Of a stretch of DNA of 64,000 nt, positions 43,737 through 45,478 are shown one piece after another. The notes below the pieces were generated by a model. That model searched no databases. It saw only the letters and a program-made list of their open reading frames with translations, and had not been told where the DNA came from. Origin of the DNA: Octopus vulgaris (taxonomy: Eukaryota). The stretch lies in the NCBI GenBank assembly GCA_951406725.2, contig OX597838.1:45074001-45138000 (forward strand), read 5' to 3'. Position 1 is the stretch's first letter. Each line of letters begins with the position of its first letter. The position numbers were made by a program, and so were the translations under genes.

Positions 43737-45478
43737 ATAACAATAATAAATCTCTAAGCGAGGTATAAACAGTAACTGCTCTGTAATATTAGCGGGACCA
43801 GCCATCTGAATGTGGCTAGGGACAGGGCGGGGTGGTGGGGGTGTTACTGATGCATTTAGCCCCAGGCGACTATAGACGTCACCAGGAGAGCCGACACCAT
43901 CACGGTGTCCTTGCTAGCCTGCAAAGGGAGATCAGCCTCCCCGAAGATACGGATACTACACACGGACCGGTTTCGAGGTATTGCCTCTCGTCAGCGCATG
44001 GCAAGCACCGTTCTTCGTTGAGGGACTTCCTCTACAGGCTAGAAATATATAGATTTTCACTGTAAACATAGTCACTGGCGTCGAAAATCTGTTCGATAAC
44101 AATAATAAATCTCTAAGCGAGGTATAACCAGTAACTGCTCTGTAATATAAGCGGGACCAGCCATTTGAATGTGGCTAGGGACAGGGCGGGGTGGTGGGGG
44201 TGTTACTGATGCATTTAGCCCCAGGCGACTATAGACGTCACCAGGAGAGCCGACACCATCATGGTGTCCTTGCTAGCCTGCAAAGGGAGATCAGCCTCCC
44301 CGAAGATACGGATGCTACACACGGACCGGTTTCGAGGTATTGCCTCTCGTCAGCGCATGACAAGCACCGTTAACATTCAGATGGCTGGTCCCGCTTATAT
44401 TACAGAGCAGTTACTGTTTATACCTCGCTTAGAGATTTATTATTGTTATCGAACAGATTTTCGACGCCAGTGACTGTGTTTACAGTGAAAATCTATATAT
44501 TTCTAGCCTGTAGAGGAAGTCCTTCAACGAAGAACGGTGCTTGCCATGCGCTGACGAGAGGCAATACCTCGAAACCGGTCCGTGTGTAGTATCCGTATCT
44601 TCGGGGAGGCTGATCTCCCTTTGCAGGCTAGCAAGGACACCGTGATGGTGTCGGCTCTCCTGGTGACGTCTATAGTCGCCTGGGGCTAAATGCATCAGTA
44701 ACACCCCCACCACCCCGCCCTGTCCCTAGCCACATTCAGATGGCTGGTCCCGCGTATATTACAGAGCAGTTACTGGTTATACCTCGCTTAGAGATTTATT
44801 ATTGTTATCGAACAGATTTTCGACGCCAGTGACTGTGTTTACAGTGAAAATCTATATATTTCTAGCCTGTAGAGGAAGTCCCTCAACGAAGAACGGTGCT
44901 TGCCATGCGCTGACGAGAGGCAATACCTCGAAACCGGTCCGTGTGTAGTATCCGTATCTTCGGGGAGGCTGATCTCCCTTTGCAGGCTAGCAAGGACACC
45001 GTGATGGTGTCGGCTCTCCTGGTGACGTCTATAGTCGCCTGGGGCTAAATGCATCAGTAACACCCCCACCACCCCGCCCTGTCCCTAGCCACATTCAGAT
45101 GGCTGGTCCCGCGTATATTACAGAGCAGTTACTGGTTATACCTCGCTTAGAGATTTATTATTGTTATCGAACAGATTTTCGACGCCAGTGACTGTGTTTA
45201 CAGTGAAAATCTATATATTTCTAGCCTGTAGAGGAAGTCCCTCAACGAAGAACGGTGCTTGCCATGCGCTGACGAGAGGCAATACCTCGAAACCGGTCCG
45301 TGTGTAGCATCCGTATCTTCGGGGAGGCTGATCTCCCTTTGCAGGCTAGCAAGGACACCGTGATGGTGTCGGCTCTCCTGGTGACGTCTATAGTCGCCTG
45401 GGGCTAAATGCATCAGTAACACCCCCACCACCCCGCCCTGTCCCTAGCCACATTCAGATGGCTGGTCCCGCTTATATT
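43737..45478. mobile_element. Retrozyme-like array B: 359-bp unit, about 1.8 copies (HHR on -) joined head-to-head to about 3.1 copies (HHR on +)
   Basis: Period 359 (44373, 44732, 45091, 45450). Inversion point at about 44372. Five HHRs. (TA)n flanks. Confidence 0.92.
44545..44586 (+). ncRNA. Type I hammerhead ribozyme (copies also at 44904-44945 +, 45263-45304 +, 43959-44000 -, 44318-44359 -)
   Basis: CATGCG-CTGACGA-GAGG-CAATA-CCTC-GAAA-CCGG-TC-CGTGTG. Confidence 0.92.

Follow-up and report, generated by a model that had tools for sequence, protein, structure and literature searches.

A young 359-nt hammerhead retrozyme array in Octopus vulgaris with the insertion scar of Penelope-like elements

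Array B and its neighbours in the window

The window analysed here is a 64,000-nt stretch of the Octopus vulgaris genome containing array B, two related arrays (A and C), a truncated copy of a Penelope-like element (PLE) family, PLE-1, and stubs of a second such family, PLE-2 (Table 1). Array B had originally been predicted to comprise about 3.1 tandem units of a 359-nt monomer joined head-to-head to about 1.8 further units, with five hammerhead ribozymes, and this description was borne out. The arms measured 3.08 and 1.77 units and abut 5'-to-5' with one extra base between them (44372), the direct arm gave a period of 359 with 3.1 copies and 99% matches in TRF (44373-45479), and the inverted arm of 635 nt is 98.6% identical to the unit. 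Five type I hammerhead cores, all intact, were counted at 44551, 44910 and 45269 on the plus strand and at 44353 and 43994 on the minus strand; position 1 of the unit is taken throughout as C3 of the hammerhead core. The units differ by ~1.0-1.4%, in agreement with the few differences between units from which a young age had been proposed, and one pair of adjacent units is identical (100%). The tandem repeat is without an ORF, its longest stop-free run being 81 aa. The monomer has a GC content of 51% and, in its cleaved form, a folding energy of -126.8 kcal/mol (z=-4.1).

Table 1. Positions of array B, related arrays and Penelope-like elements in the window
Feature	Position	Strand	Description
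Array A	38729..39754		353-nt retrozyme homologous to B; minus arm 0.83 unit, short end (207); plus arm 2.10 units, long end (255); three hammerheads
Left target microsatellite of array B	43629..43736		(TA)n/(TG)n
Array B, inverted arm	43737..44371	-	1.77 units; 3' end at long start site (~258), 5' truncated at 342
Tail of array B	43737..43783	-	47 nt between short and long start sites; within array B, at inverted-arm end only
Type I hammerhead motifs, inverted arm of array B	44318..44359, 43959-44000	-
Array B, direct arm	44373..45479	+	3.08 units of 359 nt; 3' end at short start site (~211), 5' truncated at 182
Type I hammerhead motif	44545..44586	+	Helices I and II of 6 and 4 bp, short palindromic helix III; cleavage predicted after 44580
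Further type I hammerhead copies, direct arm of array B	44904-44945, 45263-45304	+
Conserved hairpin block (unit 177-195)	45445..45463	+	Ends 14-16 nt before short start in A, B and C; candidate RT-recognition element
Right target microsatellite of array B	45480..45544		(TA)n/(TG)n
PLE-2 fold-back of two 3'-end stubs	45545..45792		Beside array B, same microsatellite tract; one arm ~27 nt longer; match to 3' ends of L151/L152 by eye
PLE-1 copy, 5'-truncated, inverted	56903..60801		RT and C-terminal GIY-YIG; minus arm long end (+82 from ATG), plus arm short end (+26); candidate helper family
Array C	63728..64000	-	364-nt retrozyme homologous to A/B; 1.67 units; U3-A8 core (U3 at 63935); short end; runs beyond window end

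The kinship of the three arrays was assessed outside the hammerhead against 100 doublet shuffles. A and B share 63% identity there (z=12.8), and the scores were lower for A and C (z=6.8) and for B and C (z=4.6). The blocks previously listed as common to A and B do occur in the same order in both, but stem-loop II had to be corrected, loop II of A being one base longer (GAGG-TCAATA-CCTC), and the kinship extends beyond isolated blocks. The third relative that had been placed at ~63.7 kb was found there as array C, which carries degenerate versions of the named shared blocks.

PLE-2 is ~55% identical in protein to PLE-1, and no hammerhead was detected by pattern search in its loci L151 and L152; a second fold-back was noted along with its stubs at 25851-26042 of the window. 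Short fold-backs of an unassigned family, at 39856-40060, 46172-46254, 46259-46380 and 46513-47480, are possibly two-armed stubs of other PLEs. Rfam returned a mir-9 match above the gathering score at 32328-32404, alike on both strands. This match is the centre of a near-perfect fold-back (32230-32501) starting in a TA tract, so it is probably spurious and due to a two-armed insertion stub. Fragments of LINE-type reverse transcriptase (RT; Pfam RVT_1) were located at 61660-63729, 30327-31589 and 4428-5942, and the first of these is 5' truncated into the TA tract in which array C also ends. A neighbouring element matched proteins at 91-99% identity that their source labels Octopus vulgaris, in keeping with an octopus host.

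A dispersed family with two fixed ends

A first look at the 2.8-Gb genome gave 1,879 candidates for the B family, which is dispersed and multicopy. The best 40 of these 1,879 were scored, and the loci used are top-scoring matches and are therefore biased to young, long copies. The B sample comprised 63 loci (the window plus 39, 8 and 15 from successive searches), or 60 after removal of segmental duplicates, the A sample 30 loci (20 of the best 40, 9 further ones and the window), and the C sample 19 loci (19 of 20 matches, L111 being a repeat of L108). Two subfamilies, B1 and B2, ~10% apart, were recognised in B. Divergence between units was smaller within than between loci in B1 (1.08% vs 2.79%), in B2 (1.23% vs 4.10%) and in A (0.61% vs 0.97%). 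Alleles fixed at a locus across both arms numbered 23 in B1 and 37 in B2, and five were private; together with the lower divergence within loci, they favour one repeatedly copied template per locus. No sign that the two arms derive from different templates was found in B, where between-arm divergence was 1.15% and within-arm divergence 1.06% and no locus of that set had arms of differing subfamilies. Array B belongs, as a young copy, to a hammerhead repeat family with a non-coding monomer of 359 nt that is spread throughout the genome. The family is an animal non-LTR retrozyme in octopus, and every sequence feature examined (tandem monomer, hammerhead, lack of coding capacity, multiple copies and duplications) supports the retrozyme identity that had been assigned to array B.

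The pair formed by core positions 3 and 8 was compared among the units matching the hammerhead scaffold. In B it was C-G in 63, U-A in 52 and mismatched in 4 units, the pairing being kept in 115 of 119, while it was U-A in all 24 units of C and C-G in 67 of the 68 units of A. This compensatory pairing indicates that the B ribozyme is under selection. Rfam at gathering thresholds gave no match to the hammerheads of A, B or C. The isolated hammerheads also folded no better than shuffles (z of -1.5 and -1.9), as is expected with a short helix III. With its helix II of 4 bp the B hammerhead is of the canonical metazoan form, which is expected to cleave as a dimer, whereas the minimal form of PLEs has a long helix II (PMC4209133). 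The short helix III of the B hammerhead likewise predicts that cleavage would depend on dimers. As a point against the cleavage predicted here, it was reported that only 1/9 predicted Xenopus retrozymes cleaved in vitro (10.64898/2026.07.22.740005).

Copies of B end either near 211 (short) or near 258 (long), 47 nt apart. Among the 36 inverted loci, 33 had one short and one long end, none had two short or two long ends, and 3 had other ends (one-sided binomial p=1e-10 on the 33); the 27 loci with a single arm were divided into 15 short, 10 long and 2 other. The same pattern recurred in A, which ends at 207 and ~253 and was mixed in 16/17 inverted loci, and in C, which ends at 209 and 268, with 7/11 inverted loci mixed and 4 non-standard. 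A (TA)4+ run lay within 20 nt after the B 3' end in 75/99 cases, a raw frequency. Among the inverted B loci examined for duplications, all four that lack a TA run of >6 nt on either side showed duplications of 12-13 bp, which overlap the element ends by a few bases, and the 5'-5' junctions ranged from a 14-nt gap to a 16-nt overlap, mostly <=5 nt. An Anolis PLE studied in vitro has two internal RT starts with the tail between them and AT-rich targets, features called unique to PLEs (PMC11167929), and the usual anatomy of PLEs includes an inverted copy and a tail at one end (PMC8557442, PMC3846280). The retrozyme copies bear this two-fixed-end, inverted-arm scar of PLEs, and we consider it very likely that B was mobilised in the PLE manner.

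The original prediction had offered the conserved non-ribozyme blocks as RT-recognition or promoter elements, and the two ideas fared differently. The former gains support from the comparisons, since two blocks lie at the two start sites (the hairpin block of Table 1 before the short start and another conserved block at the long end of A and B) and A-shared sites vary less within B: outside the hammerhead, 11/159 sites identical in A and B vary within B vs 29/155 elsewhere (Fisher p=0.002), in a test that is partly circular because identity was judged on the window allele. Five of the 6 named blocks have no subfamily-level variant in B, and the TCCCTTTGCA block has two. The hairpin block would be the best candidate for RT recognition, together with the block at the long end. 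The promoter idea is unsupported, as a scan for consensus Pol III A and B boxes found none on either strand of A, B or C. Read by eye, each of A, B, C and PLE-1 has an ATG 20-26 nt ahead of its short end. In PLE-1 this ATG is the start of the ORF, and its presence in all four hints that the monomers may have descended from the pLTR and first codons of a lost PLE.

A fourth related family was encountered at L026:2576-2806 and at loose contig ends. Its sequence resembles A up to the short end and B in the tail, a mosaic that suggests recombination between retrozyme families, and the L026 copy shows a compensatory pair within the hairpin block.

PLE-1 and its fusion to the retrozyme

The truncated PLE-1 copy of the window lies ~11 kb from array B. 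The full ORF of 1,309 aa was present in 4/20 retrieved loci, the best 40 places were ~100% identical over 591 nt, and copies differed by 0-0.4% from the majority sequence, by which measure the family is young. A C-terminal GIY-YIG domain, a CX2-5CxxC linker and a CCHH motif were read by eye in the ORF against a published description of Neptune/Nematis-type PLEs (PMC8557442). The protein itself had no match in Pfam and PDB, and some of its homologues bear PF01541 or PF26215. A long Asn/Ser-rich low-complexity region precedes the RT (L073:2272-6201) and recalls the N-rich inserts of Adineta Penelope elements (PMC3846280). PLE-1 ends at +26 and +82 from the ATG, leaving a tail of 56 nt, and one short and one long end were seen in 15/16 loci with both ends readable, a count drawn from 18 non-chimeric loci that includes two short ends over-running into TA and leaves aside 2/18 loci with an end beyond the retrieved DNA. 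Its arms reach 1.2-1.45 units.

A hammerhead-like motif with C for the expected A9, an extra base and a helix II of 6 bp occurs in the PLE-1 pLTR (window 60641-60680; L073), and the same variant was seen in the copies of older PLE-1 subfamilies examined. Outside the ribozyme, comparison of the PLE-1 pLTR with A, B and C gave no sign of similarity (z of -0.7 to 0.6), so that the pLTR homology that would mark the retrozyme as a non-autonomous derivative of PLE-1 was not found. A parent PLE with a pLTR homologous to A, B or C was likewise not found among PLE-1, its older subfamilies and PLE-2, a small sample from one protein search with a stricter first look, which other clades may escape.

In three loci (L061, L062 and L063), B is joined 5'-to-5' to a 2.2-kb PLE-1 arm through an identical junction with 4 shared bases and no TA between. 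These loci share flanks owing to segmental duplication and therefore represent one fusion event, in 60 de-duplicated B loci. The long end belongs to the PLE-1 arm; the B arm carries the short one in L061 and L062 but has been rearranged in L063. The PLE arm differs by 0.9% from the young majority, close to the within-locus divergence of B1. No fusion to a PLE was found in the 30 A loci or the 19 C loci, and the 23 B and 9 A loci that the later searches contributed to these samples gave none further. The A locus L084 was considered and rejected, its weak PLE-like protein match 700 nt off being an old fragment with 28% identity. Within the duplicated segment, which is on two chromosomes, the fused element lies in very long TA tracts, and in L062 an extra B copy, degraded or error-rich, lies 80 nt from the fusion.

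Independent insertions can also be neighbours in one TA tract, as with a PLE-1 stub 16 nt from B in L038 and the PLE-2 stub fold-back 65 nt from array B in the same microsatellite tract. Loss of the DNA separating two such insertions could mimic the fusion and would give complementary ends about half the time. We rate the chance that PLE-1 is the real helper of B as slightly better than even. The mobilisation of retrozymes by PLEs was proposed in 2020 by Cervera and de la Pena (PMC7229834), and for vertebrate retrozymes it was argued from co-occurrence and pLTR phylogeny, with the mechanism left to future work (Li, Clavereau and Pollet 2026, 10.64898/2026.07.22.740005). The insertion scar, with one of each end per inversion, and the one fusion point to PLE mobilisation more directly than co-occurrence.

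Mobilisation of array B

Array B resembles the metazoan non-LTR retrozymes in its tandem non-coding monomer within the range of 170-400 nt, one type I hammerhead per unit, many dispersed copies and lack of LTRs, and also in duplications of >4 bp, a self-paired fold and co-existing PLEs (PMC7229834; 10.64898/2026.07.22.740005). It differs from them in its GC content of 51%, in that circles and cleavage have been demonstrated in those reports and are predicted for B, and in that the pLTR of the candidate helper has no detectable homology to B, whereas the published case rests on pLTR phylogeny (10.64898/2026.07.22.740005). With EN+ PLEs it shares partial tandems, an inverted 5'-truncated arm, a tail confined to one end, (TA)n or otherwise AT-rich targets and two internal RT starts, although the tails of A, B and C (46-59 nt) and of PLE-1 (56 nt) exceed the 30-40 nt described for those elements (PMC11167929, PMC8557442, PMC3846280). 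Unlike them, array B codes for no protein and has no RT/GIY-YIG ORF. The MRC1-type elements of Chlamys are similar to B as non-autonomous PLE passengers with multicopy head-to-tail insertions; however, they share 3' sequence with their autonomous partners, while B shares none with PLE-1, and the description available to us makes no mention of a hammerhead (PMC8557442).

A further comparison is offered by twin priming of LINE-1, in which both target strands prime and a 5' inversion with microhomology results, one primer being at the poly(A) end and the arms covering non-overlapping parts of the RNA. In B, by contrast, the two starts lie at fixed internal positions, and the arms cover overlapping sequence. 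A literature search, mostly of listings, returned no report of a cephalopod retrozyme, of the one-short-one-long rule in retrozymes or of a retrozyme-PLE fusion.

Our preferred reading, in which we have reasonably good confidence, is that array B is a young non-LTR retrozyme insertion, likely pasted by a borrowed PLE RT/endonuclease, likely including that of PLE-1, from a likely circular RNA. By analogy with known families, arrays would be transcribed and the hammerheads, probably as dimers, would excise 359-nt monomers that are ligated to circles. The PLE endonuclease would then make staggered nicks ~12-13 nt apart in AT-rich DNA, mostly (TA)n, as the target bias and the duplications suggest. 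Each 3' end presumably primes RT at one of the two internal AT-rich sites 47 nt apart, one end each. The RT would proceed for 0.2-5.6 units, the range of the observed arm lengths, across the ribozyme cut site, and the two cDNAs would be joined 5'-to-5' with little or no homology, as the junctions indicate. Both arms would normally copy the same haplotype, and in at least one case the RNA of the PLE itself may have served as the template for one arm.

Several other explanations have to be weighed against this reading. Inverted repeats beside long microsatellites are prone to artefacts, and some retrieved loci (such as L062) appear error-rich, so that the head-to-head form could be thought a long-read fold-back artefact, or the array an ordinary satellite. 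We regard either as having a negligible chance and as refuted, because the arms of array B stop at different fixed positions and are ~1% apart, the layout recurs at dozens of loci with varied junctions, and target-site duplications are present at some of them. It is also very improbable that the arrays represent remnants of truncated pLTRs from an autonomous PLE, mere debris, and not a self-standing non-autonomous element. PLE stubs of the same layout are common in the window and the ATG before the short end suggests an origin from a pLTR, but in 0/63 B loci does the monomer continue into a collinear ORF, arms repeat the monomer up to 5.6 times, and three families of 353-364 nt keep one layout, with subfamily structure and compensatory core changes; by these observations the debris reading is largely refuted. 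A less remote alternative, to which we give about one chance in three, is that another PLE family mobilised B, be it PLE-2, a Naiad or an extinct parent from whose pLTR A, B and C arose, and that the fusion came about when the DNA between two independent insertions in a single TA tract was deleted. The dissimilarity of the PLE-1 pLTR to A, B and C, the presence of PLE-2 in the genome, the adjacent independent insertions (L038; window 45545) and the fact that the fusion is a single event are all in its favour. On the other hand, the fusion junction has no TA remnant and its 4-nt microhomology is within the range of the B inversion junctions, its ends are complementary (short in B, long in PLE-1), the divergence of the PLE arm is similar to that within B1 loci, and the retrieved loci, a small sample, yielded no PLE whose pLTR is homologous.

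The nature of the template is less certain than the machinery. The original prediction had deduced rolling-circle reverse transcription of a circular RNA from the fractional copy number. The data are compatible with it, but the deduction does not hold, for the number results from a fixed internal 3' start and a variable 5' truncation, and autonomous PLE-1 also leaves arms of more than one unit. Alleles common to some but not all units of a locus numbered 16 in B1, and three of them are in array B (positions 40, 204 and 226), where copying a lone monomeric circle in one run does not account for them. The template could instead be a linear read-through RNA of several units, transcribed from a source array, left uncut and taken up by PLE machinery, with later growth or homogenisation by unequal exchange or conversion and no circle. 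Such a course seems rather doubtful to us, though it draws on several observations: the Anolis PLE uses or prefers unprocessed RNA and its ribozyme mutants insert normally in vitro (PMC11167929), PLE-1 arms exceed one unit, array B has partial alleles along with its two identical adjacent units, and in L023:980-2872 a five-unit arm has alleles at 14, 57 and 267 recurring every third unit, a pattern that either a trimeric template or a block duplication after insertion could produce. Against a linear template, units of the two arms that are equidistant from the 3' end show no greater similarity than other pairs (divergence of 1.22% vs 1.12%), and the recurrent within-locus variants are scattered, about one third (B1) to three quarters (B2) of them being of CpG type. 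Linear copying alone would moreover shorten arrays, yet B arms reach 5.6-6.0 units, and circles have been demonstrated for coral and mussel retrozymes (PMC7229834). Rolling-circle copying of a monomeric RNA circle therefore seems plausible and somewhat favoured, partly by analogy with the coral and mussel cases. Contigs from four runs presumed to be RNA cover B-family sequence, and those from four cover both B and PLE-1. None of the runs with such sequence is recorded as RNA, and contigs, which can show neither strand, ends, level nor circles, do not bear on the choice of template.

Within the preferred reading, the PLE RT might act as an asymmetric dimer whose two active sites are obliged to begin at distinct fixed positions, one for each target strand, and which is able to hold two different RNAs. 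The fusion would then be the product of a PLE-1 particle that used one site to copy its own RNA and the other to copy a retrozyme circle, and recognition of the passenger would depend on structure (the hairpin ahead of the short start) and not on pLTR homology. This extension is speculative and we hold it only tentatively.

For the enzyme that copies animal retrozymes into genomes, PLEs have been proposed, and the reports cited here leave the matter open (PMC7229834; 10.64898/2026.07.22.740005). The class of element to which array B belongs is already known, and it is the fusion to an intact PLE family that is worth a test at the bench. The strict one-short-one-long rule constrains how PLE integration works. 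Since an intact 1,309-aa PLE, a 359-nt passenger with two mapped starts and a natural fusion of the two are at hand, the helper question becomes testable in the published lizard-PLE in vitro system. If the two-RNA dimer reading is true, it would give a named, intact helper-passenger pair for the in vitro mobilisation of retrozymes.
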